The notes: generated from the sequence alone by a model not told the origin. DNA of 32,000 nucleotides from Candidatus Nanogingivalaceae bacterium (GCA_015257795.3 CP072208.2:150001-182000); one strand, 5' to 3'; counted from the first letter of the stretch, positions 4,993 through 31,232 are shown. Translations and numbers: made by a program.

Positions 4993-5640
4993 ATGAAAAA
5001 TAAAGTAATTATTTCGGCTATAATTGCATTTTTTGCTGTCGCTGGAATAGCTATATTGCCCAACGGTATGAACGCTCATGCTTTATCCCCGGAAGAGGAA
5101 GAGCGCATATATCTGGTAACTATTGATAAGCAAATAGCGATAGTTACTGCGAATGCAAAAAAGGCTAGTTCTTATGAAGAAGCGAAGACGATGATGAGCG
5201 AATATAAGACCAATCTTGCTGAGTATTTGGCAGAACTTACTGATGCCAGTAAAAATGCGGTAATGGATCGCATTAAACTAGCGGAAAAAGAGATAGCTGA
5301 TCATTTTGGTGTTGTTACTCCTGAAGTTCCTGAAACTCCTGTTACACCTGAAAACGACAATGAAAATTCTGGTAAAGAAGAGGCTGCTGAAGAAAACAAG
5401 CCTAATACTAACGTTCCGCAAAATAGCCCTGAAAAACCGTCAAATGAAAAACCGGCCAACGCGCCAGCTAAACCAGAAAATAAACCTCAATTAGCGGCCC
5501 CAGAAATCGCTAAAGAAAATAAAGATTCTTTAAAAGCTCCAAATACTGGTGAAAAAAATAACAATTTTGAACTTATAACAATTAGCTTTGTCGCTATGTT
5601 GCTAACAGCTCTTTCAGTGGTTGTTCTAAAAAAGTTTTAG
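4993..5640 (+). CDS. Secreted cell-surface protein with Pro/Glu/Lys-rich spacer and C-terminal sorting signal (KAPNTG + TM + KKF)
   Basis: It has a signal peptide (..GMNAHA/LS), a low-complexity PEVPETPVTPEN..KPSNEKPANAPAKPENKP region, and a tripartite C-terminus. An AAGGAG SD is present. Confidence 0.8.
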   Translation: MKNKVIISAIIAFFAVAGIAILPNGMNAHALSPEEEERIYLVTIDKQIAIVTANAKKASSYEEAKTMMSEYKTNLAEYLAELTDASKNAVMDRIKLAEKEIADHFGVVTPEVPETPVTPENDNENSGKEEAAEENKPNTNVPQNSPEKPSNEKPANAPAKPENKPQLAAPEIAKENKDSLKAPNTGEKNNNFELITISFVAMLLTALSVVVLKKF

Positions 5641-5660
5641 TTAATTTCTAAAATATATCA

Positions 5661-5695
5661 AAAACTACTTTCGTTTTGGAGGTAGTTTTTTTGTT
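5661..5695 (+). terminator. Intrinsic terminator
   Basis: The stem AAAACTAC / GTAGTTTT is followed by TTTGTTGTTT. Confidence 0.6.
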
Positions 5696-5704
5696 GTTTA
5701 ATGC

Positions 5705-5733
5705 TTGATTGAAAACTAAAGAGGGTTTATAAT
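5705..5733 (+). promoter_or_regulatory. Consensus promoter TTGATT-17-TATAAT, ATG 6 nt downstream
   Basis: The -35 is at 5705..5710 and the -10 at 5728..5733. The first ATG is at 5740. The GTG at 5734 used by the ORF track directly abuts the -10. Confidence 0.55.
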
Positions 5734-5739
5734 GTGCTT

Positions 5740-7119
5740 ATGAATAAAGAATCCCTAAATAAAAATTTGAATCAAAATCAAAATGTAAAAACCGGCTGGG
5801 AAGATGTTGCTGATTATTTGCCAAAAAATTTAGAAAATTCTCAAGATAACGAAAAAAGGGAAAGATCTTTCGAAAAAATTGGCGAATACACCGTTAAAAA
5901 TGTCGAAAAAAACCCAGATGGCAGTTATAACTTTTTAGGAATAAACCCAGAAGAGGAAAAATCTAATGCACTTAAGAAAATAGCCGCACAACAACTTTTC
6001 GAGAATTATCTTTGGGCTTATCACGAAGGCAGAAGCTCTAGTAAGCTTGAAAAAAGAAGGGAATTTCTTAAAAATAATATCGATCAAGTTTTAAAAGGTG
6101 ATATTTTAGATAAGATAGATTTTTCTAAATCTGGAAACGAGGTTTTGGTTCAAGAATATAACATTGACGGCTTGAATTTTAAGTTTTTTAATGCTATGTA
6201 TGAGGGCATGGGTGCAATTGTTAAAGATGAAGATGGTGTCATGAAAACCCGAGCTTTTAGGGAATCTGGAAGTGATCACCAATTTAAAAGTGCTCCGGGT
6301 ATGGAAGAGTTTAGGTGGATAAAAGGTAATGAGTGGGATCCAAATAAGCACTATGTTCAATCTGGTAAGCTTGACCCAAGAGTTTATGAGATTCTTAGCG
6401 ATCTATCAGGAAAGAAGACTCCACGCGGTAGTCTTCAAATAGCCGCTTCGTCGTTAGTAACATTTGTTAGAAATTTAAAAGAACAGCCATCTGAAGACTC
6501 GGAAAAATTTGAATTTTCAGAAAAACAGCATGAGTTTAAAGATGAAGAATGGAATAGAATTCGGCAACATCTGACAAAAGATTTTAAAGATTTCATGGAA
6601 ATAAAACAATACGGCCGAACTCGTGATTCATCTAAAATGCTTTCAGAAGAAGAATATGCTAAAAAATTTGATTACTATTTTGTTAAATCTGAGAAAAAAT
6701 TTTCAGCTTTAGAGAGATCGGGAATGGTCCCAGATTTCAATCGAAAACCGGATGCTAGATATTTTAAAGATAATGGAAATATCCGAATCGAGGAATTCAT
6801 TGCAAGCAGTGAAAAGGGTGATAATATTTGTTGGTCAATGGCAACCGATCGCCAAAACCGTGTTTATATTGATGATATCTTTACGCCAGACGTTCCGGTG
6901 GATAGTTATGGAACGCCGAGCGAAAAAACTAATATGGGTATGTTAATATACAAACCAGAAGATTACGCATCGCAGAACCGTGGTCTACCTGATAAATATG
7001 TTAAGGAACGCAAAGCCGATGGAAATGCTTATGAAGATATTTCAGATATGCTCAAAGCAATGCCACCAGTTCAAAAATATATGCAAGCTCTTAGGGAAAG
7101 GCGAAAGCGTAATTCTTGA
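5740..7119 (+). CDS. Hypothetical soluble protein (~459 aa), no signal peptide or TM, charged (K/E/D-rich)
   Basis: This is a long uninterrupted ORF with a consensus promoter. No catalytic motif or family recognised. The start was moved to the ATG at 5740. Confidence 0.75.
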   Translation: MNKESLNKNLNQNQNVKTGWEDVADYLPKNLENSQDNEKRERSFEKIGEYTVKNVEKNPDGSYNFLGINPEEEKSNALKKIAAQQLFENYLWAYHEGRSSSKLEKRREFLKNNIDQVLKGDILDKIDFSKSGNEVLVQEYNIDGLNFKFFNAMYEGMGAIVKDEDGVMKTRAFRESGSDHQFKSAPGMEEFRWIKGNEWDPNKHYVQSGKLDPRVYEILSDLSGKKTPRGSLQIAASSLVTFVRNLKEQPSEDSEKFEFSEKQHEFKDEEWNRIRQHLTKDFKDFMEIKQYGRTRDSSKMLSEEEYAKKFDYYFVKSEKKFSALERSGMVPDFNRKPDARYFKDNGNIRIEEFIASSEKGDNICWSMATDRQNRVYIDDIFTPDVPVDSYGTPSEKTNMGMLIYKPEDYASQNRGLPDKYVKERKADGNAYEDISDMLKAMPPVQKYMQALRERRKRNS

Positions 7120-8552: not shown

Positions 8553-8567
8553 ATTTTGCTAAAAATA

Positions 8568-8600
8568 AAATCCCGCTAATCTTGGCGGGTTTTTATTATT
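8568..8600 (+). terminator. Intrinsic terminator of rpsB-tsf
   Basis: The stem CCCGC / GCGGG has an 8-nt loop and is followed by TTTTTATTATTTT. Confidence 0.65.
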
Positions 8601-8612
8601 TTCGAAAGAGAA

Positions 8613-8939
8613 TTAAGCTAAACTTTTTTCGACAAAAGCAATAATTCGCACGTCGCGAGATTCTAAATCACTTTCTTCGTTAATTTCATCAATTCCAAAA
8701 AGCTCTTCAGCACCTTCACCAAATTTAGCGTGTAGATTTTTAATCCAATTGCCGTTTGCGAGTTTTTTCAAACTAACATTTTCGCTAAAACTAACACCGC
8801 GAAAGAAATTTTTTTCTTCGGGAAGGGTAATTTTAAGTTCTGCGTCTTTCGAGATTCCTTTTTCAATTTTCAATTTGAAATTTTTCTTAAAAATCGGGTC
8901 AAAATAATTAAGTATCTTTTTTGTAGTTTTTTGTTTCAT
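8613..8939 (-). CDS. Orphan hypothetical protein (108 aa)
   Basis: The ORF has an AAGGAA SD, its own promoter (8977..9005) and convergent termination with tsf. No family recognised. Confidence 0.6.
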   Translation of the reverse strand: MKQKTTKKILNYFDPIFKKNFKLKIEKGISKDAELKITLPEEKNFFRGVSFSENVSLKKLANGNWIKNLHAKFGEGAEELFGIDEINEESDLESRDVRIIAFVEKSLA

Positions 8940-8976
8940 TTGATTCCTTTTTTGATTTTTGCTTTAAAACATAACT

Positions 8977-9005
8977 ATAATAACATAAAAAATAAAAAAA
9001 GTCAA
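8977..9005 (-). promoter_or_regulatory. Promoter TTGACT-17-TATTAT (- strand) for the 8613..8939 gene
   Basis: Plus strand agtcaa at 9000..9005 and ataata at 8977..8982 are the reverse complements of the two hexamers. Confidence 0.45.
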
Positions 9006-9006
9006 T

Positions 9007-9035
9007 AGAAAACCCTGCCAAAAAATGACAGGGTG
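9007..9035 (-). terminator. Intrinsic terminator of the 9052..9420 gene
   Basis: On the - strand, the hairpin CCCTGTCA / TGGCAGGG (one mismatch) is followed by TTTTCT. Confidence 0.55.
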
Positions 9036-9051
9036 TGTTGACCGCGAGCTT

Positions 9052-9420
9052 CTAGGAACGATATAATGTATGATTTTTTGGTAAAAATTTTCGAATATTA
9101 CCATGAAGCCAAATCCGTGCAAATCCTTCATTTTCTTTTATTAGAAAATCAATTCTTTGAATAGATTTAAATAACGGACTCATACTTATGACATTATTGA
9201 TATCGTAGACATATTCTTTTTTGAAAGTCTCACTAAGTGGAACTTCAACAATACAACTTCTTCCAATAGAGCATAGGTTAACAAGTCTTCTAACTTCAGC
9301 ATCAGGAAGGCTTTTAAAAGCCTCGCGAACGACTTTTGATAGCTCATTGTGATAAGCTACAGATGAGATATCGCGGGCGTTTTGAATACGTTCACCGCTT
9401 GTTAAGGTTCTTTTAGACAT
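9052..9420 (-). CDS. Orphan hypothetical protein (~122 aa)
   Basis: An AAGGAGG SD lies 8 nt upstream of the ATG at 9420; the TTG at 9426 used by the ORF track is less likely. The gene has its own promoter and terminator. No family recognised. Confidence 0.6.
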   Translation of the reverse strand: MSKRTLTSGERIQNARDISSVAYHNELSKVVREAFKSLPDAEVRRLVNLCSIGRSCIVEVPLSETFKKEYVYDINNVISMSPLFKSIQRIDFLIKENEGFARIWLHGNIRKFLPKNHTLYRS

Positions 9421-9480
9421 AAGCAATGCCTCCTTTTCTAAAGTGCTTCCCAGGATAGGGATAGTGTAATTTATAATATA

Positions 9481-9509
9481 ATTTTACTTCCTTAACAGTA
9501 AAAAGTCAA
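9481..9509 (-). promoter_or_regulatory. Promoter TTGACT-17-TAAAAT (- strand) for the 9052..9420 gene
   Basis: Plus strand agtcaa at 9504..9509 and atttta at 9481..9486 are separated by a 17-nt spacer. Confidence 0.5.
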
Positions 9510-9510
9510 G

Positions 9511-9536
9511 TAAAAACCCCGAGCTTAATCGGGGCT
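9511..9536 (-). terminator. Intrinsic terminator of the 9543..10196 gene
   Basis: The stem CCCCGA / TCGGGG has a 6-nt loop, followed on the - strand by TTTTTA. Confidence 0.65.
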
Positions 9537-9542
9537 TTAAGG

Positions 9543-10196
9543 TTAAAAATCCAGCCTATTTATTTGAGCGTATAAATTATAACCTTGTTTACGAATTTCG
9601 CTATTAGCGTGCGGTCTTCGAAAACCAACGATATTTTTAAATATTTTAGGGTATCGTTTTAAATGTCTCTGTAAAGGGATTAATTTAGTGCGCTTAGGTA
9701 AAATGATTGGAATTTCAATTATTCCGTTAACATAAATTTGCTCACGGAGCTTTTTATATTCATCTTTCGAAAGCTTTTTAATATGTTTTTTAACCTCCTC
9801 TAAGGCTATCTTAGAATAGTGTAGAGCACTTTCGGTAGGTCTGTCTAGTTTTAGGACACTTTTTGGTGCTATTAGAAAGACGATCTGATCTACACCATCT
9901 TTTTCGGCTTCATATTCTTCATAAATGTGAAACTTACTATTAACATTCCTGCGAACTTCGGTGAATTTACCATTTCCGTAGCCTTTTTCAAGTGCTATGG
10001 CTTTTGGGATACTAATTTTTGTGGAATATTTCCTCCAAAAATCAGAATGTCCTTCTGGAACAGTTTGTCGTTCAATTGATTGACCTAGATTTTTACAGAT
10101 ATATTCGACAATTTCAGCTAAAATTAGCATATACTCTTCTTGTAGTTTTTCTAGTTCGGCTGTTCGAGCTAAGGGTTTGCTAACAGAATTTGTCAT
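9543..10196 (-). CDS. Orphan hypothetical protein (217 aa), basic C-terminal half
   Basis: It has a strong AGGAGGA SD 7 nt upstream of the ATG, a perfect consensus promoter and its own terminator. No family recognised. Confidence 0.7.
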   Translation of the reverse strand: MTNSVSKPLARTAELEKLQEEYMLILAEIVEYICKNLGQSIERQTVPEGHSDFWRKYSTKISIPKAIALEKGYGNGKFTEVRRNVNSKFHIYEEYEAEKDGVDQIVFLIAPKSVLKLDRPTESALHYSKIALEEVKKHIKKLSKDEYKKLREQIYVNGIIEIPIILPKRTKLIPLQRHLKRYPKIFKNIVGFRRPHANSEIRKQGYNLYAQINRLDF

Positions 10197-14013: not shown

Positions 14014-14056
14014 CGGTTTAATGTTGTTATAAAGATTCGAGAGAGGGGTGATCATA

Positions 14057-14533
14057 ATGAATCAACAGCAAGAAACTTTAAATAAGGAGATTGAAATTCC
14101 AGGGATATTGATCGCGTCAATTTCTCGTTCGATTGGTAAATATTTAACAAACTATAAAATCTATTTTTATATGCAAGAGGAAGGTTTTCTTGTACCAGAA
14201 ATTGGTGTTACAGTTATTTTTGATCGCAGGATGCCTTATCCTATAGTAGGTGCTATTATAGATACTATTAGGAAGGAAAATATGAGGGGTATATCGGTTG
14301 AAGATTGCCTTGAGGACTATCAACGATTTATAACTCAAGACTCCACTGAATGGGCGGATAAGCTTGTTGATATAGAGTTTTTAGCCACGTTAGTGGATGA
14401 TGATGACTCATGGATGATGGATGAGGAGATGTCCCTAGTTGCGCTTCAAGACTTAGCTCAATATATAATGGATGTTATTCCGCTATTTTGTTTCTATGTT
14501 AATAGAGGAGGTGATTTTAGCTATGAATGGTGA
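14057..14533 (+). CDS. Orphan acidic protein (~158 aa)
   Basis: A GAGAGGGGTG SD precedes the ATG at 14057. The protein has a very acidic C-terminal half (DDDDSWMMDEEMS). No family recognised. Confidence 0.6.
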   Translation: MNQQQETLNKEIEIPGILIASISRSIGKYLTNYKIYFYMQEEGFLVPEIGVTVIFDRRMPYPIVGAIIDTIRKENMRGISVEDCLEDYQRFITQDSTEWADKLVDIEFLATLVDDDDSWMMDEEMSLVALQDLAQYIMDVIPLFCFYVNRGGDFSYEW

Positions 14534-14975
14534 AGTCACTATTGCTGAACTTTTCGCAAAGTTTGGGCGTAGGTTCGCAATGATTATCGAACCAGATCAC
14601 GATCAAGTTTATGTTGTTACATTTTATGAAATCGTCTTTAATGGTTATGAAAAATATATTAAAAGAAGAACTGTTGAATATTATCAACAAAACTATGATT
14701 TAATACTTCCGGGTTTTGCCGATGAATACGATATAATTGATGCGGTAGATTTAGATCCTCACGTTGAGAATATGCTATTTCATCCGCTTTCGATTTTGAA
14801 TAGAAGGGCTAGTAAAAAAGCTTTACGAACAGCCGAAAATCTTCGAAAATTATCCTCGGCGCTGTTTAAATATGAACAAGCTAGAGAAAATAACTTCGAA
14901 GAGTTTATTGAAAAAGGAGAAGAAATGCGAAAAGGAATTATCAATCTAATTGTGAAAACGTGCGAAAACGTTTAA
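14523..14975 (+). CDS. Orphan protein (~150 aa), translationally coupled to the upstream gene
   Basis: A GAGGAGGTGA SD inside the upstream gene lies 9 nt before the ATG at 14523. The two genes overlap by 11 nt. No family recognised. Confidence 0.6.
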   Translation: MNGEVTIAELFAKFGRRFAMIIEPDHDQVYVVTFYEIVFNGYEKYIKRRTVEYYQQNYDLILPGFADEYDIIDAVDLDPHVENMLFHPLSILNRRASKKALRTAENLRKLSSALFKYEQARENNFEEFIEKGEEMRKGIINLIVKTCENV

Positions 14976-15069: not shown

Positions 15070-17730
15070 ATGTCTAGAAAAACTGCGAAGAAGAAAAATG
15101 TAATGGTGGAAGACAATAAAGTTGATAAAATTTTAACAACCGTTTTTGGTGATCCACAAAAGAAAATTTTGCGTCGATTGCAACGCAAAGTTGATGAAAT
15201 TAATAAATTAAGCGAAAAATACGAAAAAATGAGCGATGAAAAGCTCAAAAAGACTTTCGAAAAACTCAAGAAGAGCCTTTCGAAAAAGAGCTTGGATGAT
15301 ATTTTACCAGATGTATTTGCGCTTGTCCGTGAAGCTTCAAACCGTGTTCTTGGAATGCGCCACTTTGACGTTCAGTTAATTGGTGGAATGGTTCTTCATG
15401 AAGGAAAAGTTGCCGAAATGAAAACAGGTGAAGGTAAAACTTTGGTGGCAACTTTGCCGGTTTCTTTGAATGCGATGGAAGGAAAAGGTGTGCACGTTGT
15501 GACCGTGAACGATTATCTTGCACAGCGTGACGCTTCTTGGATGGGAAAGTTGTATGACTTTCTTGGTCTTTCGGTTGGTGTGATTATTAATGACGCCAGT
15601 TTTATCTTTGATCCAGAATATGATAACGAAGAGCATGAAGATGAGAACATGCGAAAACTTCGTCCAGCAACTCGAAAAGAGGCTTACGCTGCGGATATTA
15701 CTTATGGAACAAATAACGAATTTGGTTTCGATTATTTGCGCGACAACATGGTGAATGAAGTTGAGCTTTTGCGTCAGCGCGAGCTTAATTTTGCAATTGT
15801 CGACGAGGTTGACTCAATTTTGATCGATGAAGCTCGAACACCTTTGATTATTTCTGCTCCAGCTGCTGAAAATCCAGAAAGTTATATTCAATTTGCCAAG
15901 GTTGTTTCACAGCTTTCAAAAGAAGATTACGAAGTTGATGAAAAGCGCCGAAGCGTAGCTTTAACTGAATCTGGAATCGATAAGATTGAAAAACTTCTTA
16001 ATATGAAAAATCTTTATACGCCAGAACATTCGCGTGCGGTTTATCACGTTGAGCAAGCTTTGCGCGCCGAAACTCTTTTCAAACGTGATAAAGATTACGT
16101 TGTGACAAATGATGGTGAGGTGATTATTGTTGACGAACACACTGGTCGCTTGATGAACGGACGTCGCTATAACGAAGGTCTACACCAGGCAATTGAGGCA
16201 AAAGAAAAAGTTCCAGTTTTGCAAGAATCAATGACTTTGGCAACAATTTCGTTCCAGAATTTCTTCCGTCTTTATAATAAACTTTCAGGAATGACCGGAA
16301 CCGCTTTCACTGAGGCTGAAGAGTTTCAACAAATTTATTCTTTGGAGGTTGTGCAAATTCCTTCAAACAAACCAGTCATTCGCGACGACAAAGAAGATTT
16401 GATTTTTAAAACTGAAAAAGCAAAACTTAAAGCTGTTGCTGAAGCAATTAAAAAATATCACGCAGAAGGACGTCCAGTTTTGGTTGGTTCAGGCTCAATT
16501 GAAAAGAATGAGCAAATTGCAAAATATCTCGACCAAGAAGGAATTAAATACAATCTTCTGAACGCTAAAAACAACGAACATGAGGCTGCAATCGTGGCAC
16601 GTGCCGGAGAAAAAGGTGCAATTACTCTTGCAACAAATATTGCTGGTCGTGGAACCGACATTAAGCTTGGTAAAGGTGTTAAGGAACTTGGTGGATTGGT
16701 TGTGATTGGTTCAGAGCGTCATGAATCTCGCCGAATTGACAACCAGTTCCGCGGTCGTGGTGGTCGTCAGGGAGATCCAGGCGAAACCCAATTCTACGTT
16801 TCAACTGAAGACGATTTGATGCGAATTTTCCAGGGTGAAAGAATTGCAGCATTGATGGATCGGCTTGGTGTGCCAGAAGATACGCCAATTCAACATAAAG
16901 CTGTTTCGAAAACACTTGAAAATGCGCAAAAACGCGTTGAAGGATTCAACTTTGATACGCGTAAAAATGTTGTTCAATATGATAATGTGATCAACCGTCA
17001 CCGAAAAGTTGTTTACGCGATGCGCCGAAAAATTCTTGAAGGTGAAGATATTACAGCCGAAATTAAAGAGCTATTTATTTCGAAAGCAGCAGAACTCGCT
17101 GAACTACCTTCAAAAAATAACGAAAAATTCGTTTCAGACTTTGTTGAAATCTTCCCAGTTGATGAAGAGAAAATTGAGGCTCTTGGCCGAATTTCTAACG
17201 ACAAAAAGCGAATTAAATTAGCTAAACAAATTGCTGAAGAGCTTTACCAAGATAAAGAAAATGAACTAGGTAAAGAGGTGTTCCAAAAAGTTGAACGCGA
17301 AGTTTATATGCAAATTCTTGATACTCTTTGGATGAATCACCTTGAAAATATGAATTTCTTGCGTGAAGGAATTCACTGGCGAAGTGTTGGGCAACGCGAT
17401 CCATTGGTTGAATACCGTGCAGAATCACAAAAATTGTTCGATGGTCTTCAGAACACTTTGCGCGATGAAACGATTCGAATTCTAACTCGAGTTACACCAA
17501 ATGATGCAGTAGCGCACCAAGATGAAGGTCACGATACTGAACTTACGCGACTTGCTGAGAATTCAGTTGAAAAAGGTGTTAACGAGATTCAATCTGGCGA
17601 TAAAAACCGCGATGAAGATTTTTCGAAAGCTAAAAAAGCCGCTTCAAAAAATAACGAAAACGCAAAAAAGAATAATGCGCGAAAAGCTAAAAAAGCTCAA
17701 CGCCAGAACAAAAAGAAGGGTCGCAAATAG
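15070..17730 (+). CDS. secA: Preprotein translocase ATPase SecA
   Basis: It has Walker A MKTGEGKT, the DEAD-like motif DEVDSILIDEARTPLIIS, and TNIAGRGTDIKLG. The start was chosen at the ATG at 15070, behind the GGAGAGGG SD; the ATG at 15103 is also possible. The C-terminus is Lys-rich and lacks the Cys zinc-finger. Confidence 0.97.
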   Translation: MSRKTAKKKNVMVEDNKVDKILTTVFGDPQKKILRRLQRKVDEINKLSEKYEKMSDEKLKKTFEKLKKSLSKKSLDDILPDVFALVREASNRVLGMRHFDVQLIGGMVLHEGKVAEMKTGEGKTLVATLPVSLNAMEGKGVHVVTVNDYLAQRDASWMGKLYDFLGLSVGVIINDASFIFDPEYDNEEHEDENMRKLRPATRKEAYAADITYGTNNEFGFDYLRDNMVNEVELLRQRELNFAIVDEVDSILIDEARTPLIISAPAAENPESYIQFAKVVSQLSKEDYEVDEKRRSVALTESGIDKIEKLLNMKNLYTPEHSRAVYHVEQALRAETLFKRDKDYVVTNDGEVIIVDEHTGRLMNGRRYNEGLHQAIEAKEKVPVLQESMTLATISFQNFFRLYNKLSGMTGTAFTEAEEFQQIYSLEVVQIPSNKPVIRDDKEDLIFKTEKAKLKAVAEAIKKYHAEGRPVLVGSGSIEKNEQIAKYLDQEGIKYNLLNAKNNEHEAAIVARAGEKGAITLATNIAGRGTDIKLGKGVKELGGLVVIGSERHESRRIDNQFRGRGGRQGDPGETQFYVSTEDDLMRIFQGERIAALMDRLGVPEDTPIQHKAVSKTLENAQKRVEGFNFDTRKNVVQYDNVINRHRKVVYAMRRKILEGEDITAEIKELFISKAAELAELPSKNNEKFVSDFVEIFPVDEEKIEALGRISNDKKRIKLAKQIAEELYQDKENELGKEVFQKVEREVYMQILDTLWMNHLENMNFLREGIHWRSVGQRDPLVEYRAESQKLFDGLQNTLRDETIRILTRVTPNDAVAHQDEGHDTELTRLAENSVEKGVNEIQSGDKNRDEDFSKAKKAASKNNENAKKNNARKAKKAQRQNKKKGRK

Positions 17731-25393: not shown

Positions 25394-26383
25394 ATGAAAA
25401 TCATTGCTTATAGTGTACGAAAAGATGAGCTCCAGTATTTTGAAAAATTTGCGGAGCAATTTGGTATTGAATATGCCACAACTTCAAAAGATTTAAATGC
25501 TGAAACAGTAAAACTGGCCGAAGGTTTCGATGCGGTTTCTTCATATACTTCAAGTGAAGAACTGAACGATGTTTGGGAACCGCTTTCGAAAATGGGAATT
25601 TCTTATTTTACGGTTCGAACAGCTGGTTATGATGGTATAGATATCGAAAAGGCTAAAAGTTTTGGTATTAAAATTTCGAATGTTCCGCAATATTCGCCAA
25701 GTGCGATTGCTGAATTCGCGGTTGCGCTTGCACTTGCGACAATTCGAAATATTCCGCTTTGTCTTTCACGTGCAAAAAACCAGAATTTTTCGGTTGATAA
25801 TTTGATGGGTCGTGAGCTTAACACAATGACGATTGGAATTATCGGCACAGGCCACATCGGCTTAACAACAGCCAAGGTTTTTAAAGCTTTTGGTGCTAAA
25901 ATTATTGCATATGATACTTTCGAAAATCCGCAAGCGCAAAATATTTTAGAATACAAATCTCTTGATGAAGTTTTTGCGGAAAGTGATTTAATTTCGCTTC
26001 ACATTCCATTAACACCGCAAAACCACCATATCATTAACGCTGAGAGTATTGCTAAAATGAAAGACGGTGTGGTTATTGTGAACACTGCGCGTGGCGGTCA
26101 CATTAACACTGCGGATTTGCGCGATGCACTAGTTAGCGGAAAAGTTGCTGCAGCCGGCCTTGATGTTTTCGAAAATGAAAAACACCTTATTCGAAAAGAC
26201 TTAAGTGGAAGGATCATCAAAGATTCAGTTTATCGCGATTTGTCGAATTTTCCGAATGTTATCATCACGCCACACGTTGCGTTTAATACAGATGTTGCCG
26301 TTCAAAATATGGTCAAAATGTCGACAGAAAATCTAATTAGCTTTAAAAATGCAGGAACAACCGATAATGAAATCACAAAATAA
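25394..26383 (+). CDS. ldhA: D-lactate dehydrogenase (D-isomer-specific 2-hydroxyacid dehydrogenase)
   Basis: It has GIIGTGHIGL NAD-binding, NTARGG and TPHVAF motifs. Overall collinearity with fermentative LdhA is recalled from memory. Starting at the ATG at 25394 gives 329 aa. Confidence 0.85.
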   Translation: MKIIAYSVRKDELQYFEKFAEQFGIEYATTSKDLNAETVKLAEGFDAVSSYTSSEELNDVWEPLSKMGISYFTVRTAGYDGIDIEKAKSFGIKISNVPQYSPSAIAEFAVALALATIRNIPLCLSRAKNQNFSVDNLMGRELNTMTIGIIGTGHIGLTTAKVFKAFGAKIIAYDTFENPQAQNILEYKSLDEVFAESDLISLHIPLTPQNHHIINAESIAKMKDGVVIVNTARGGHINTADLRDALVSGKVAAAGLDVFENEKHLIRKDLSGRIIKDSVYRDLSNFPNVIITPHVAFNTDVAVQNMVKMSTENLISFKNAGTTDNEITK

Positions 26384-28262
26384 TCGTTTACAAAAAATTA
26401 CCAAAATTACGTCACTATTTTTAGTGGCGGTTTTGGCATTTAGTTTTGTCTCGGCGAGTTTTTCTCACCCAGCTTTTGCGCGTCGCCGCAGAAGAAATAG
26501 CGCAGCTGAGCGAAGAGAACTCGAAAGAAAGAATCAAAACATTAAATTTCCGAAGTTCGAGGGGACTTATAAATTTAGCGCCAACCAAAATGGTGATACC
26601 GACCTTGAAGTAACCGAACAGATTTCTGCAAGTTTCATTCTTGGTAATGTTAATCACGGAATTGAACGTGCTATTCCAAAATACTATAACGGTAAAACTG
26701 TTTTTGACGGTAAGGCTGATATCACAATGGACGGTATAAATGTGCCGTATAGTACAAGACCAAGCAATGGTAATGTTGTTTTTCGAATTGGCGATTCTAA
26801 CCAATATGTTTCCGGCCGACATAATTATCAAATAAAATACCATTTGAAAAATATTTTAAGAGCCGGGGAAGGCGAATTAAAGGATCGACAACTTCTAATC
26901 GTTAATGCAAATGGTTCGCAGTGGCAGCAGCAGTTTGGCGAAGTTTCTGGAAAAGTCATTCTTGATCAATCTGTTAAAAATGATTTTAAAGGGGTTGCGA
27001 AATGTTTTTCTGGTGCGTATGGGTCAGATACTCAATGTGAAAAATCGTCCCTAAACCAAGAAAATGGTGAATACACATTCTCTGAAAAGAATGTTTTAAG
27101 CAATCAAAGCGTAACATTCTTGATGGCTTTCAATAATAAATTTGCTCAGCCAACGCCTAATCCTTTAGATGTAACTACAATGATTGTAGCAATTGTTTCT
27201 ATGATCGCCGCACTAGTGATTGTGGCCTTAGCTATGATTGTTTTCTATAAGAAAAATGCAATTCGAAAGCGAAACTCACTTTCGAAAGAGGCTAAAACAG
27301 TTGTTCCGCAATATTTACCACCAAAAATCGGAGTATTAGATATCCTTGATGCGGGCAACTTAGTTAAATCTAATAAGAAAGTCACCGCTGCGATGCTATT
27401 TTTTGCAGTCAATGGTAACATTTTGATTGAGGAAGAAGAGAAGAAAAATCTTTTCGGTAAACACAAGATTTACAAGATAAAGCTATTAAATTACAGAGGT
27501 TTAAACTCAGATATGCGCGAGCTTTTGGAATGTTTCTTTATCGATGGAGAAGAAGTTAACCTTTCGAAAACTATGAGCTCTTCTATAGCATCGAGTATTT
27601 CTTCAAGAATCATAAATGACAGGTTTAAAGATACAGATTATTACGACCAAAGCGAGCCAGCTTTCAATAAAAGAATGCGCATCGTTGCTTATGTTATTGA
27701 CGCTTTGATTTTTGCATCGTTTTTCTTTAGCGATTCTACATTCTCGGCGCTTTCGACTGTTTCGAAGTGGCATCCGTATATCTTCCTTTCAACTTTGATT
27801 GCGGGCGTATTTTCGACATTAATTATAGTTGTTGTAAGTATTAAGATTCCATCTAGAAAAGGTTATGAAATGAAGAATTACCTTATGGGATTAAAGCTTT
27901 ATATTTCAGTTGCTGAAAGCGAACGGCTTAAATATCTCCAAAGCCTTGAAAAATCTGAACGCTTCAAAGATGAATTTGGTGGTTCACGAGTTAAACTTTA
28001 CGAAAAACTTTTACCTTGGGCTGCTTTGTTTGGTCTTGAAAAATCTTGGGCAAAGGTTCTTGAAGTTGAATTTGCGAACAATGACTATCAACCAAGCTGG
28101 TATTCTGGCGTGAATGCATTCAACGCAGCCGTTTTTGCAGATACGCTCAATAGCTTCAGCAGTGCCGTTAACAGCTATTCTGCGCCAAGCTCTGGTGGTG
28201 CCGGTGGCGGTGGCGGATTTTCTGGCGGCGGTGCCGGTGGCGGCGGTGGCGGTGGTTGGTAA
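26367..28262 (+). CDS. DUF2207-family membrane protein with C-terminal poly-Gly tail
   Basis: It has an N-terminal signal/anchor, an extracellular domain with NHGIERAIP, central TM helices, and the terminal SSGGAGGGGGFSGGGAGGGGGGGW typical of DUF2207. The start (26367, or 26349) overlaps the ldhA 3' end. Confidence 0.75.
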   Translation: MKSQNNRLQKITKITSLFLVAVLAFSFVSASFSHPAFARRRRRNSAAERRELERKNQNIKFPKFEGTYKFSANQNGDTDLEVTEQISASFILGNVNHGIERAIPKYYNGKTVFDGKADITMDGINVPYSTRPSNGNVVFRIGDSNQYVSGRHNYQIKYHLKNILRAGEGELKDRQLLIVNANGSQWQQQFGEVSGKVILDQSVKNDFKGVAKCFSGAYGSDTQCEKSSLNQENGEYTFSEKNVLSNQSVTFLMAFNNKFAQPTPNPLDVTTMIVAIVSMIAALVIVALAMIVFYKKNAIRKRNSLSKEAKTVVPQYLPPKIGVLDILDAGNLVKSNKKVTAAMLFFAVNGNILIEEEEKKNLFGKHKIYKIKLLNYRGLNSDMRELLECFFIDGEEVNLSKTMSSSIASSISSRIINDRFKDTDYYDQSEPAFNKRMRIVAYVIDALIFASFFFSDSTFSALSTVSKWHPYIFLSTLIAGVFSTLIIVVVSIKIPSRKGYEMKNYLMGLKLYISVAESERLKYLQSLEKSERFKDEFGGSRVKLYEKLLPWAALFGLEKSWAKVLEVEFANNDYQPSWYSGVNAFNAAVFADTLNSFSSAVNSYSAPSSGGAGGGGGFSGGGAGGGGGGGW

Positions 28263-28280
28263 ACCCCGCTAAATCCTATA

Positions 28281-28316
28281 AAAATAACCCAAACTTAACG
28301 GGTTATTTTTTATTTT
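28281..28316 (+). terminator. Intrinsic terminator
   Basis: A 10-bp stem AAAATAACCC / GGGTTATTTT is followed by TTATTTT. Confidence 0.7.
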
Positions 28317-28371: not shown

Positions 28372-31188
28372 ATGAATAATTTTTGGGTTGGGTTTAAAAA
28401 CAAAAAAGGGATCTTTTTAGCTATTTTAGCTTTGTTTACGGTGGCGACATCTGTAGTAGATAATCGCCACCAGGCTTATGCTGATGATTATCAATATAGC
28501 CAAGAAGAGTGTGCAAAGGGAGGATTTAAATACGACGGCGTAGAACTATGGTCACATGCTGGTGCTGGATGTCTTGTTTATACCGCTGAAATTAAAAATG
28601 GTAAAGTATTGCGAACTGACCAGGTTCAGACTATTGGTGGTCCTAAAGATTTAGTTAGGCTTAAGCCTACTTATGTCCTTAAAGATGGAGGTACCTGTTT
28701 TAAAGGATATAAGAAAAAAAACTATGAGGGTATAAATGTTTGTGAAATAAGTGATAAGGATAGTAAATCTAAGGATGCAGGCTATCCTCCAGGATCTAGC
28801 TCTAAAAATACTCTAGATGCCAAGAGCTGTGAGAAAGCAGGGGGGTTTTATAATGCGGTTGGTGATAAAAAAAGGTGTTTTTTAAATAATTTAAAAGGTG
28901 AACTAGAATCGTTTAATAATATCTCGTCTTTTCCTAGTAAATATCTAACAAAAGAAGATTGCGCACCTGGATTTGTAAAAAGTAAAGATAAACAATCTAA
29001 AGATTTCACGGTGCCTCTTACTACGGATGGACCGGGTACTGTAAAGGATAAGAAGCCAACCCCCGTCTATACTTGTGCTAAAAAAGGCACCAAAGCTGGT
29101 GACAGTGTAGAAGAATGTAATAAAGAAGAAAACAAAGATAGTGAAAAATGTAAAAATAATCCAGCTGGTGAAGACGATGGTGATGGCTCTGATGACAAAA
29201 ACTCTTGTGCAATTGAATGGGTTGGTTGGATTATGTGTCCGATTATCAATGGTGCAAATGGTATGGTTGTTACTACTTATAGCATCATGCAGAAGCATTT
29301 TCTAAATATTAAGGCTGATGAAATCTTCCAACAAGACAAGCCGGCGTTCAAAACTTGGTCTAGTTTCCGTGATATTGCTAACGTATTTTTTGTAATAATA
29401 TTGTCTATTATTATCTTCTCGCAAGTTTCGGGTGTGGGTATTTCAAATTATGGCATCAAGAAGATGTTGCCAAAAATTATTGTCTTTGCGATTTTAGTTA
29501 ATATTTCATGGTATGTTTCTGTTTTGATGATTGATATCTCTAATATTGTAGGACATTCATTGTTTGAATGGCTTTCGAATGATGGTCAATGGGATTACTC
29601 GAGTGACTCTCAGACAGAGAATAACCCTATTAAGCAAATCTTGGGTGGTACTGCTGTTCTTGGTGTTGGTACTGCCGCAGGTGTTACAGGTGCTTTTGCT
29701 GCAGGGTCTTCAGCGTTGCTGTTTCTTATCTCGGCTGCACTTGCGTTGATTATGATGGTATTTATCTTGCTAATTCGACAGGCTGCTGTGATTGTGCTTG
29801 TAGTTATTTCACCAGTAGCTTTTGTTGCAGGTATTCTACCAAACACAGAAGGGTTCTTCAAAAAATGGATGAAGTTCCTTAAAAATATGTTAATGATTTA
29901 CCCAATTTGTTCGCTAATTGTGGGTGGTGCAATATTTGTTTCAAACTTGCTTTATAGTAATGAAAGTAATCCGCTATTGAAGGTTGCCTATGGTTTACTG
30001 CCAATCCTTTCATTGTTTACAATTGTTGCTATAATCAAGAGTGTGCTTTCAATCATTGACGGCTTAACGGGCGGTAATCTACGTGGAACTCTTGACCGAA
30101 TGTCTGGTAGAATAAATAATGGTATTAAAGAAAGTAGCCCTATACAGCATTGGAAAGATGCAGAAAATAGGCGTACTGTAGGTGATATTAGTTTTAGAGG
30201 GCATAAACTTGGTAATGTTATTAGTGACGATAATAAATTCGGCCGCTATGTTAAGGGGATGGGTCTAACTAGAGCTAGAAGGCAATATAATTATGAACAG
30301 AAAAGAGCTGCTCAGGAGTATGATAGGGATGGTGCGGCTATAGATAAGATTCTATCTAAAGAAAATCTAACACCAGAAGATTATCGAGAATTGGCGGCTA
30401 GATCAAATAGCAGGGCTGCATTCGAGAAGAGCCAGACTGAAGGTATGACAGCTGTAATAGCTAGAGCAATATCTGGTAATGTCAATAACCTCGGAGGGCA
30501 GTTAGATAAAATTGATAATGTATCTGATCCGAATCAGAAGGCGTTATTGTATGGTTCGGCTGCTCAAGCGGCTACAAAAGCTGGCTTAAGTGCTGCTGAT
30601 CAGGAAGTAGCCATGAATAATATTGTCAATAGAGCTTTGAGTATCAAAGACGATACTCAAAGACAAGCGGCAATGACACAGATTGCTTCAAGAGCTGGTT
30701 CTGATATGAAGAGCGCTAACCCAGCTGCAGCTAAGGCTGCTATGCAAGATGTTTCAAATTCTAATAACATCAAGAGTGTTTCCGATTTCGCAAAAGAGGC
30801 TTCGACCTATGCTGGTGCTAGCGCCCAACAAATGTCTAGTTGGTCAACAATGTCAAGTAATAATACAGCAGATAATAAGGTTGTTGGTGCTATTAAGGAA
30901 GCCTTTAAAAATGGTGATCAAGCACAAATTGCTCATGCACAGAATATAGGTAAGATTGCCGATCAAGCGCTTAAAGCGCATAACGAAGGTAAGATGTTCT
31001 TAACACCTGCGCAGGAAAGAAACTTTAAGGATGTATCGAATACTGTTAAAGTAAATACTCCTGCACCTGTAAGCTCACAAAATGTGCAGACAAGTGTAAA
31101 TTATAACACTCAGAGCCAATATACATATGGTGCTCCAGCGCCAACACCAAAATCGGTTGTAGGCCAGTATAAATCAAATAAACCATAG
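28372..31188 (+). CDS. Large secreted/polytopic membrane protein (938 aa): Cys-rich N-terminal ectodomain, ~7-8 TM core (VirB6/TrbL-like topology, tentative), A/Q/S/N-rich C-terminal domain
   Basis: It has a signal peptide (..HQAYA/DD) and 12 Cys within residues ~45-295. Dense TM helices span residues ~285-565 (e.g. RQAAVIVLVVISPVAFVAGIL), followed by a ~370-aa low-complexity hydrophilic tail. The confidence refers to the CDS being real; the VirB6-like call alone is about 0.3. Confidence 0.85.
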   Translation: MNNFWVGFKNKKGIFLAILALFTVATSVVDNRHQAYADDYQYSQEECAKGGFKYDGVELWSHAGAGCLVYTAEIKNGKVLRTDQVQTIGGPKDLVRLKPTYVLKDGGTCFKGYKKKNYEGINVCEISDKDSKSKDAGYPPGSSSKNTLDAKSCEKAGGFYNAVGDKKRCFLNNLKGELESFNNISSFPSKYLTKEDCAPGFVKSKDKQSKDFTVPLTTDGPGTVKDKKPTPVYTCAKKGTKAGDSVEECNKEENKDSEKCKNNPAGEDDGDGSDDKNSCAIEWVGWIMCPIINGANGMVVTTYSIMQKHFLNIKADEIFQQDKPAFKTWSSFRDIANVFFVIILSIIIFSQVSGVGISNYGIKKMLPKIIVFAILVNISWYVSVLMIDISNIVGHSLFEWLSNDGQWDYSSDSQTENNPIKQILGGTAVLGVGTAAGVTGAFAAGSSALLFLISAALALIMMVFILLIRQAAVIVLVVISPVAFVAGILPNTEGFFKKWMKFLKNMLMIYPICSLIVGGAIFVSNLLYSNESNPLLKVAYGLLPILSLFTIVAIIKSVLSIIDGLTGGNLRGTLDRMSGRINNGIKESSPIQHWKDAENRRTVGDISFRGHKLGNVISDDNKFGRYVKGMGLTRARRQYNYEQKRAAQEYDRDGAAIDKILSKENLTPEDYRELAARSNSRAAFEKSQTEGMTAVIARAISGNVNNLGGQLDKIDNVSDPNQKALLYGSAAQAATKAGLSAADQEVAMNNIVNRALSIKDDTQRQAAMTQIASRAGSDMKSANPAAAKAAMQDVSNSNNIKSVSDFAKEASTYAGASAQQMSSWSTMSSNNTADNKVVGAIKEAFKNGDQAQIAHAQNIGKIADQALKAHNEGKMFLTPAQERNFKDVSNTVKVNTPAPVSSQNVQTSVNYNTQSQYTYGAPAPTPKSVVGQYKSNKP

Positions 31189-31204
31189 CGTTCTAAATAA
31201 ATAA

Positions 31205-31232
31205 AAACGCCCCGCTTAAGGGGTGTTTTTTC
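31205..31232 (+). terminator. Intrinsic terminator
   Basis: The stem ACGCCCC / GGGGTGT has a 6-nt loop and is followed by TTTTTC. Confidence 0.7.

Follow-up and report, generated by a model that had tools for sequence, protein, structure and literature searches.

Why should a protein built on the membrane core of a type IV secretion system (T4SS) be encoded alone among housekeeping genes? The question is raised by a 32,000-nucleotide stretch of DNA from Candidatus Nanogingivalaceae bacterium (CP072208.2:150001-182000), here called the window, in which positions are counted from the first letter. At 28372..31188 on the + strand, an ATG-started open reading frame (ORF) encodes a protein of 938 amino acids (aa) with a VirB6/TrbL core; VirB6 forms an oligomer (a pentamer in R388) within the T4SS and is needed for substrate transfer. 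The gene lies between a gene for a DUF2207 membrane protein and murD, which starts at about 31284, and we refer to it as the orphan gene. Our preferred reading, to which we assign a probability of roughly 55%, is that it encodes an 'extended' VirB6/TrbL_3 protein of an oral Saccharibacterium that serves as an alternative or accessory VirB6 of the lineage's T4SS, with an ectodomain and a C-terminal domain that are exchanged as cassettes. Because the proteins encoded in the flanks match those of the metagenome-assembled genome Candidatus Nanogingivalaceae bacterium JCVI_32_bin.33 (locus L005) and of several human-associated metagenome contigs at 96-100% identity, the window DNA (~36% GC) is identified, on sequence grounds, as that of an oral Saccharibacterium (TM7, Patescibacteria).

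The core is a VirB6/TrbL domain

An earlier note on this stretch had proposed a VirB6/TrbL-like core, and several lines of evidence bear this out. Pfam TrbL (PF04610) matched the full-length protein with 20.6 bits, under the gathering score of 25.9, and the core alone (residues 268-585) with 27.2 bits, above it (E = 4e-6); 16 of 27 core relatives matched TrbL as well, and the full-length relatives P0127, P0149 and P0143 exceed the gathering score. Public assemblies contain the identical protein with a precomputed match to Pfam TrbL_3 (PF19590, E <= 1e-5), and relatives have such a match too; PF19590 was not among the matches in the Pfam scans run in this analysis. A profile search of the PDB with the full-length family returned only coiled-coil and low-complexity noise from the tail. 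Repeated with the trimmed core, it gave one meaningful match, TrwI/VirB6 of R388 (7o3v_F, E = 0.052), in an alignment that spans the conserved tryptophan motif and pairs SPVAFVAGILPNTEGFFKKW with GPLFILALIWQPTHRFFDQW (...LPNTEGFFKKW and ...QPTHRFFDQW, respectively). The tryptophan at position 499 (W499), in the conserved loop that follows the central membrane helices, is invariant in 85 family members and aligns with the TrwI tryptophan of ...FFDQW; the equivalent residue is essential in Agrobacterium tumefaciens VirB6 (PMC2653234). TrwI was also the highest-probability Foldseek match of the AlphaFold2 (AF2) model (0.91), ranking 19th by E-value (0.39). Given the TrbL and TrbL_3 matches, the profile and Foldseek matches to TrwI and the invariant W499, the core is a VirB6/TrbL domain.

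Hydropathy analysis found six hydrophobic segments within residues 329-568, and the segments of the core fall at about 335-357, 366-390, 441-489 (one or two spans), 503-528 and 538-565; the seven to eight transmembrane helices proposed earlier are therefore replaced by five or six hydrophobic segments. AF2 placed long helices over this hydrophobic stretch, with a predicted local distance difference test score (pLDDT) of 85-96, and the model of the whole protein has a mean pLDDT of 79.

The suggestion that the protein belongs to no described family did not survive the searches. The family comprises 14,829 clusters at 50% identity in an exhaustive search at E <= 1e-3 and 3,969 at E <= 1e-30, its homology is centred on residues ~260-600, and its N- and C-terminal lengths vary. 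Although its proteins are named only 'hypothetical protein' in public records, they fall under TrbL_3 and TrbL, and extended VirB6 proteins are a published, recognised subclass with large hydrophilic additions and a total size well above ~300 aa, the roles of the extra domains being unknown (PMC12857230). One survey counted 480 VirB6 homologues in Patescibacteria, 304 of them near virB4 and 176 not (PMC12102498). The protein family, the extended VirB6 subclass and the T4SS of Patescibacteria are already known, and the orphan is not a new family.

Two additions predicted to fold flank the core

The structure models show an 'extended VirB6' architecture, in which the VirB6 core is joined by an ectodomain of ~230 aa and a helical C-terminal domain of ~270 aa, both predicted with confidence to be folded, for a total of 938 aa. 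The N-terminus opens with a putative signal peptide, as had been noted earlier: hydropathy marks a segment at residues 11-32 that is followed by an AYA/DD cleavage motif, a helix is predicted at 12-29, and the N-terminal sequence MNxFWxGxKNKK is conserved in orthologues. The description of the product as a secreted protein has to be given up, since it is membrane-anchored instead.

Cysteines occupy residues 47, 67, 109, 124, 153, 169, 197, 235, 249, 260, 279 and 289, plus 513, and none is found in residues 571-938. The earlier count of 12 within the first ~290 residues was exact, and the 24 other proteins of the window contain 0-4 cysteines each. All 12 are retained in relatives of 65-97% identity, and eight are retained in orthologues of 20-28% ectodomain identity, where they are spaced as four successive Cys-Cys pairs. 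The proposal that these cysteines form about four modules was right about the motif and wrong about the unit. A C-x(2,3)-G(G)-[FY] motif does occur four times, at C47, C109, C153 and C197 (shuffled ectodomains gave a mean of 0.2 and P(>=4) = 1e-4). When the first and second halves were aligned with hhalign, however, they matched with a probability of 90% (E = 1.5e-6), which argues that the ectodomain (~230-250 aa) consists, as judged from this alignment, of a ~95-aa unit duplicated in tandem, with two Cys-Cys loops per copy, rather than of four equal modules. In the AF2 models residues 40-240 are beta-rich (pLDDT 85-94). We infer that consecutive cysteines pair as disulfides and that the ectodomain lies on the surface of a monoderm cell; the signal peptide and the 12 conserved cysteines of the N-terminal part support the earlier picture of a surface-exposed, disulfide-rich ectodomain. 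This domain matched no Pfam family and no PHROG family, and Foldseek against the PDB gave probabilities of at most 0.06. A hidden Markov model (HMM) of the ectodomain matched orphan proteins with long N-termini, plus one single unit in an unplaced relative (L079), and found no match among T4SS-cluster proteins. The duplicated Cys-loop ectodomain is restricted to part of the orphan clade described below.

Between the ectodomain and the membrane lies the segment SCAIEWVGWIMCP, to which attention had already been drawn. It is present as described, and no other N-terminal feature is conserved as strongly across the family as its motif, SCxIxxxGWIxCP: in 85 family sequences G285, C289 and P290 do not vary, and C279 and W286 are each kept in at least 90%.

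The C-terminal part had been taken for a low-complexity A/Q/S/N tail of ~370 aa. Most of it is instead predicted to be a folded domain, all-helical over residues 623-895 (pLDDT ~95), with disorder limited to 584-619 and 901-938. It has no Pfam family. Foldseek matched it to 4d10_D with a probability of 0.75, and this is the ECOD template listed by Wang et al. for the C-terminus of Southlakia epibionticum SEML1_0013, a T4SS-cluster protein (PMC10633639). An HMM built from the C-terminal domains of close relatives matched the nearest orphan subclades only, and what suggests a link to the cluster paralogues is the common structural template.

Positively charged residues cluster at 358-368, 489-504 and 566-660 (19 K+R against 12 D+E in the last of these), and the loop at 391-440 is acidic. 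These charge clusters, the signal peptide and 12 cysteines at the N-terminal end and the lack of cysteines in 571-938 are consistent with an N-out/C-in topology, which would have five spans and a cytoplasmic helical domain if residues 441-489 cross the membrane once. Such an arrangement matches the topology model of A. tumefaciens VirB6.

A separate clade at a fixed housekeeping locus

Metagenome contigs were scanned for relatives, and the best 80 of 535 matches were taken as loci. By their marker genes, 19 of these 80 are of the orphan type (41-96% core identity to the window) and about 48 are of the T4SS-cluster type (34-42%); the rest are too short or stand in a third kind of context. The orphan setting was compared in 29 orthologous loci, which have GreA-ProRS-2-Hacid_dh-DUF2207 upstream and MurD or SerRS-HPF-SecA downstream. 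T4SS genes are absent from all 29, so that the position of the gene away from secretion genes, noted earlier, holds well beyond the window. In close relatives (L001-L005, L017-L031, L035) the order is GreA-ProRS-2-Hacid_dh-DUF2207-gene-MurD. In distant Saccharibacteria it is DUF2207-gene-SerRS-Grx-HPF-SecA-M16, as in L008 (protein P0127, from wastewater, 32% identity) and L032-L034. DUF2207 is upstream in the window and in L001, L003, L005, L008-L010, L017-L019, L021-L025, L027, L028 and L030-L035, down to ~30% DUF2207 identity; in L012 (P0124) and L014 (P0128) SerRS follows the gene and DUF2207 was not seen upstream.

The roughly 48 other loci have pilins together with PrgI, TraC-like and VirB4 genes beside the TrbL_3 gene. 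In L015 the order is seven pilins, Hsp20, TrbL_3 (961 aa), a 313-aa gene, a second TrbL_3 (1069 aa, P0138), PrgI, TraC-like, VirB4, an M23 peptidase and a CHAP protein, which is the gene order of SEML1_0006-0021 in S. epibionticum; in L099-L102 the same cluster adjoins dnaN-dnaA. Of the S. epibionticum genes, SEML1_0011 and SEML1_0013 are essential, and SEML1_0013 is needed for epibiotic growth (PMC10633639).

Neighbour-joining analysis of 110 cores recovered the orphan proteins as a single clade in all 100 bootstraps. The cluster-type proteins all belong to two paralogue groups, and the split between these groups on one side and the orphan proteins plus a small unplaced group on the other was found in 67 of 100. 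The orphan proteins are thus a separate clade at a fixed housekeeping locus (DUF2207, the gene, then SerRS or MurD) in Saccharibacteria lineages down to ~32% identity, and two distinct TrbL_3 paralogues are encoded in the T4SS clusters of other Saccharibacteria. The closest relatives beyond the orphan clade include T4SS-cluster genes: the window protein shares 38% identity with P0138 over residues 264-577 and 29% with the paralogue nearer the pilins. Outside the core, no sequence similarity to the cluster paralogues was found.

Two further observations on TrbL_3 genes came from the same loci. About half of the sufficiently long T4SS-cluster loci contain two different TrbL_3 genes, with N-terminal parts of ~135-170 aa and ~290-500 aa; the two are adjacent in some lineages and separated by a ~310-aa gene in others (L015 5952-13210; L099 2294-8127; L101 3214-8162). 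A further TrbL_3 group, with N-terminal parts of ~290-580 aa, is found outside both the T4SS clusters and the DUF2207 locus (L006, L007, L011, L016, L037, L068-L070, L074, L076). In L006, L007 and L016 its gene adjoins one for a CLIPPER/DUF11 surface protein, and L016 also has a reverse-transcriptase gene nearby; the neighbours in L006 and L007 are membrane or CLIPPER/DUF11 surface proteins, with no T4SS domains among them.

The gene also stands out from its surroundings in a short word. The window has 73 copies of TTCGAA where 23.5 would be expected; the earlier note had called the gene almost free of it, and indeed one copy lies in the orphan gene and 72 elsewhere. The underlying unit is an 8-bp palindrome, TTTCGAAA, with 41 copies against 4.15 expected, found in all codon phases and in spacers (for example at 1271-1278, 15255-15262 and 27562-27569) and nowhere within 28372-31188. 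TTCGAA density is characteristic of a lineage. It reaches 2-3.5 per kb in the window lineage and exceeds 1 per kb in several further lineages that have the orphan, and it does not rise beyond 0.6 per kb in the orphan loci L032-L034 or in any T4SS-cluster locus sampled from other lineages. Across 16 loci the orphan gene has 0.52 copies per kb and its flanks 2.94, a depletion of about six-fold, which fits a different turnover of orphan-gene DNA and the surrounding core genome. In a naturally competent phylum, TTTCGAAA could be a motif that resembles an uptake sequence or is linked to methylation.

This depletion would also suit a remnant of an integrated conjugative element or prophage, with the orphan as a mobilome membrane protein of the CD3337/EF1877 type, and NCBIfam does return a weak match to that family (NF046089, E = 8e-4). 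That match, however, is confined to residues 448-565 and reaches 18.3 bits where the cut-off is 120, PHROG gave no matches, and relaxase, coupling-protein and integrase genes as well as repeats are missing from the flanks. Housekeeping genes surround the orphan, in a synteny that extends to lineages of 32% identity, and the GC content of the gene, 38-40% against 36% for the window, is unremarkable. We therefore regard a mobile-element origin as highly improbable.

The outer domains vary as cassettes between strains

When relatives were compared with the window protein domain by domain, the three parts proved to evolve independently within the lineage. P0027 is 99% identical in the ectodomain, 85% in the core and 49% in the C-terminal domain; for P0029 the corresponding values are 23%, 90% and 86%, for P0020 48%, 97% and 87%, and for P0033 65%, 89% and 49%. 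Conservation is highest in the core (85-98% within the lineage), and the C-terminal domain occurs as discrete allele types, at either 49% or 85-99% identity. The same pattern was seen in the DNA of the conspecific loci L005, L017 and L021. Their flanks (the 3 kb before the gene, and murD after it) are 94-100% identical to the window, whereas identity falls to 41-74% in the ectodomain-coding DNA; most of the core DNA is at 84-95%, with two 200-bp bins at 67-71% in L005 and L021, and the C-terminal-domain DNA is at 40-76% in L005 and L021 and 86-100% in L017. Since identity drops at the ends of the gene and the domain identities are mixed, the orphan gene is a sharply bounded variable island whose two outer domains behave as discrete, recombining alleles or cassettes. 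This agrees with the remark that in oral TM7 VirB4 is highly conserved and VirB6 is clade- or subclade-specific (PMC7739484), and it makes the role in host interaction suggested by the earlier note plausible, though no more.

The orphan gene is not the only strain-variable surface-protein island here, because the regions between L31 and S2 and after Tsf (window 4993-7119 and 8553-9542) also differ between conspecific contigs. Window 4993-7119 holds ORFs of 215 aa and 461 aa, both of which lack a Pfam match; L097 (14660-16026) has a 215-aa ORF and a 206-aa HI_0787_N protein, and L098 (14680-15987, 17605-19149) encodes a Muc_B2 protein of 435 aa together with an additional MucBP protein of 514 aa.

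Variability of this kind brings in a second alternative, that the protein is a surface adhesin or receptor, or a stand-alone channel, that works independently of any T4SS and uses its VirB6-like core as an oligomerising membrane anchor. A hypervariable ectodomain is typical of adhesins and phage-receptor proteins, other strain-variable genes in this region encode MucBP/Muc_B2 surface proteins, and a CLIPPER-domain protein is encoded just upstream of the window. The orphan gene has terminators of its own and no T4SS neighbours in the 29 loci, and the further TrbL_3 group outside T4SS clusters, with its CLIPPER/DUF11 neighbours in L006, L007 and L016, points the same way. The conservation of the core at 85-98% and the retention of W499, on the other hand, argue for selection on VirB6 function; no member of the VirB6 family is known, from T4SS reviews, to function apart from a T4SS, and a pure adhesin would leave the large C-terminal domain of conserved fold unexplained. 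We consider this alternative possible, at about one chance in four or so in our judgment, and it is the rival we take most seriously.

Relation to the T4SS of the lineage

If the protein does belong to a T4SS, it could be either an additional VirB6 or the only one. According to the latter view, the T4SS's own VirB6 was relocated from the cluster to the DUF2207 locus, leaving a cluster that lacks TrbL_3 genes. The distribution so far is complementary, S. epibionticum having VirB6 genes in its cluster and nothing at the orphan site, and neither GC nor TTCGAA density nor tetranucleotide composition assigns any sampled T4SS cluster to an orphan-bearing lineage. There are precedents for dispersed T4SS genes in reduced genomes, as in Rickettsia, where rvh is spread over five islets (PMC2653234). 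The absence of matching clusters is nevertheless weak evidence, the sampled loci being the best 80 of 535 matches, and the orphan clade lies outside both cluster paralogue groups (in the 67 of 100 bootstraps given above). Relocation would moreover require two losses, given that about half of the sufficiently long clusters have two TrbL_3 genes, and VirB6 is found inside the T4SS operon in most of 55 oral TM7 genomes (PMC7739484) and across Saccharibacteria groups (PMC7427843). On balance we hold relocation to be unlikely. A third paralogue is ranked above a relocated sole VirB6 because surveys find a T4SS region with VirB4, VirB6 and VirB2 kept across Saccharibacteria groups (PMC7427843), with VirB6 inside the conserved operon in most oral TM7 genomes (PMC7739484).

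VirB4 was searched for as well. Every protein that the searches returned was at least 89% identical to the queries, and the two matches that were followed up proved to be T4SS clusters next to dnaA in lineages of 44-45% GC, unlike the window lineage. VirB4 is itself unusual, its protein being 84-95% identical across sampled Saccharibacteria whose DNA ranges over 38-55% GC (L015, L081, L099, L101 and ~45 other loci). The VirB6-like, PrgI and pilin genes beside it are only 30-60% identical, and such conservation is unusually strong for a secretion ATPase.

The role as an alternative or accessory VirB6 is proposed because the nearest relatives of the orphan outside its own clade include T4SS-cluster genes (38% identity to P0138) and because it shares its domain plan with the essential SEML1_0013. 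If this reading is correct, the Sec signal peptide would export the N-terminus and the protein would oligomerise in the membrane as a VirB6-type platform or channel subunit, taking the part of an alternative or accessory VirB6 in the essential T4SS of the lineage. Contact with the pilus base or with the envelope of the host bacterium could then fall to the variable ectodomain, the engagement of variable partners, whether substrates or machine subunits, could fall to the variable domain in the cytoplasm, and strain-level cassette exchange might tune specificity or evade recognition by host or phage.

Several observations weigh against it. No T4SS cluster could be traced to an orphan-bearing genome, and no sampled T4SS-cluster locus matches an orphan-bearing lineage in composition, the best tetranucleotide correlation (r) being 0.915 where presumed same-lineage loci gave 0.977 (window and L097) and 0.965 (L040 and L081). 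T4SS genes are likewise absent from the 32-kb window and from the 10 kb on either side of it. S. epibionticum, the only genetically tested species, lacks the gene at the syntenic site, where only genes of 333 bp and 744 bp lie between SEML1_0217 (DUF2207) and the SerRS, RaiA and SecA genes that begin at SEML1_0224. The Foldseek match to TrwI 7o3v_F is weak, with E = 0.39, a template modelling score (TM-score) of 0.43 and a root-mean-square deviation (rmsd) of 8.2 over 280 columns. The predicted topology matters too, as the C-terminal domain would be outside the cell if residues 441-489 cross the membrane twice, and hypervariability in a cytoplasmic domain is unusual.

Comparison with known systems

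The nearest counterparts are SEML1_0013 and SEML1_0011 of the S. epibionticum T4SS (PMC10633639), together with their equivalents in other Saccharibacteria such as those in L015. They share with the orphan TrbL_3, the SCxIxGxGWIxCP motif and 29-38% core identity over ~320 residues, as well as a plan of variable exported N-terminus, membrane core and long helical, ARM-like C-terminus; phylum and lifestyle are also in common. However, they lie between a pilin array and prgI/virB4 next to dnaA, whereas the orphan stands alone after DUF2207, belongs to a separate clade and, in part of that clade, has a duplicated Cys-loop ectodomain seen in no cluster-type protein. Linkage to virB4 is found for the paralogues in other Saccharibacteria and not for the orphan, and is a feature of context rather than of the family as such.

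TrwI/VirB6 of R388 (PDB 7o3v, 8rt9) and A. tumefaciens VirB6 (~300 aa) share the polytopic helical core, and the tryptophan loop aligns in the case of TrwI. The orphan is three times larger than canonical VirB6, to which it adds the signal peptide, the disulfide-rich ectodomain and the ~270-aa helical domain. It differs further in its monoderm cell and in having no adjacent VirB5, VirB8 or VirB4, and the similarity is marginal (E = 0.052, TM-score 0.43). The VirB6 paralogues of Rickettsiales (RvhB6a-e of Rickettsia, 674-1154 aa, and VirB6-1 to -4 of Anaplasma) resemble it as divergent copies with large, poorly conserved flanking domains, in obligately host-dependent organisms with reduced genomes and T4SS genes spread over several loci (PMC2653234, PMC7648143). 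Rickettsiales, however, are diderm Proteobacteria with T4SSs of mating-pair formation type T (MPF-T) and mostly tandem paralogues, whereas the orphan is solitary and in a monoderm, and the flanking domains are unrelated in sequence. Gram-positive VirB6 homologues of the MPF-FA type (700-900 aa, PMC12857230) are likewise from monoderm cells, are of similar size and also combine a core with added regions; they lie inside conjugative elements and their additions are described as unstructured, in contrast to the two additions of the orphan, which are predicted with confidence to fold.

The orphan gene and its neighbours

The features of the locus are collected in Table 1. Both hairpins were confirmed by folding against 200 shuffles, none of which was as stable; a simple terminator scan had missed both. 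With a hairpin and T-run at each end, the orphan gene looks like a transcription unit of its own, in keeping with its earlier description as monocistronic with its own terminator.

Table 1. Coordinates of the orphan gene, the parts of its product and the adjoining features in the window.
Feature	Position	Strand	Evidence and remarks
DUF2207 membrane protein, Gly-rich C-terminus	26349..28262	+	Pfam DUF2207 and DUF2207_C; conserved upstream neighbour of the orphan gene
Hairpin and T-run, terminator-like, 3' of the DUF2207 gene	28280..28310	+	-10.8 kcal/mol, z = -4.0, 0/200 shuffles as stable
Coding sequence of the orphan extended VirB6/TrbL_3 protein, 938 aa	28372..31188	+	Identical protein P0002 on record with Pfam TrbL_3
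Putative signal peptide, residues 1-37	28372..28482	+	K-rich n-region, hydrophobic ~14-30, AYA/DD cleavage motif (site inferred from sequence)
Predicted ectodomain repeat unit 1, residues 40-135	28489..28776	+	Loops C47-C67 and C109-C124; helix, hairpins; beta-rich, pLDDT 85-94
Predicted ectodomain repeat unit 2, residues 146-240	28807..29091	+	Loops C153-C169 and C197-C235
Acidic linker (C249, C260) and juxtamembrane motif S-C279-AIEWVGWIM-C289-P	29092..29241	+	Motif family-wide, also in T4SS-cluster paralogues
VirB6/TrbL core, residues 269-575, W499 invariant	29176..30096	+	Pfam TrbL, TrwI profile match, Foldseek, hydropathy
K/R-rich, mostly disordered linker, residues 576-622	30097..30237	+	pLDDT <50 at 584-619; indel-rich between alleles
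Predicted folded all-helical (ARM/HEAT-like) C-terminal domain, residues 623-900, no Cys, presumed cytoplasmic	30238..31071	+	Helices only, pLDDT ~95
Disordered Q/N/S/T/P-rich tail, residues 901-938, and stop	31072..31188	+	pLDDT 36-43; length-variable in relatives
Hairpin and T-run, terminator-like, between the orphan gene and murD	31203..31230	+	-16.5 kcal/mol, z = -5.0, 0/200 shuffles as stable

The remaining genes of the window are of housekeeping type and include those for HtrA, PrmC, RF1, UDG, S2, Tsf, SerRS, HPF and SecA, together with an M16 peptidase, XseA, RRF, RseP, a CAAX protease, GreA, ProRS and a 2-hydroxyacid dehydrogenase; the 10 kb upstream of the window encode ParAB, a signal peptidase and surface proteins. 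The C-terminus of the DUF2207 protein is a run, GGAGGGGGFSGGGAGGGGGGGW. DUF2207 is a constant upstream neighbour of the orphan gene even where the DUF2207 proteins are only ~30% identical, and in S. epibionticum it is present (SEML1_0217) without the orphan. Between an NAGPA-like gene and secA, two overlapping ORFs of 161 aa (14048-14533, +) and 167 aa (14472-14975, +) have no Pfam match; the relatives L008 and L014 have a single gene of ~141-143 aa at this position, and one or both ORF calls may be wrong. A 217-aa ORF at 9543-10196 (-) was considered as a thiol-disulfide oxidoreductase and rejected, its Thioredoxin_9 match being sub-threshold and a CxxC motif absent.

Implications

What appears to be new here, no description having been found in the literature searched, is the orphan clade at the DUF2207 locus, the duplicated disulfide-rich ectodomain, which matched no PDB fold, and the domain-wise shuffling of alleles in conspecific strains. 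One may speculate further, although we think it improbable as a whole, that the orphan VirB6 serves the essential T4SS as an exchangeable module of specificity, in which the disulfide-stabilised ectodomain would recognise the host envelope, the ARM-like cytoplasmic domain would select cargo in place of the missing coupling protein, strains of one species would exchange cassettes by natural transformation and the alleles would set host range. The T4SS, which is essential in S. epibionticum (PMC10633639), is among the few machines shown to be essential for epibiotic Saccharibacteria, and VirB6 is its central membrane platform. Surveys that count VirB6 homologues only near virB4 would miss the orphan clade, and a third VirB6 paralogue, conserved among housekeeping genes, would be a definite candidate determinant of host range or immune evasion.

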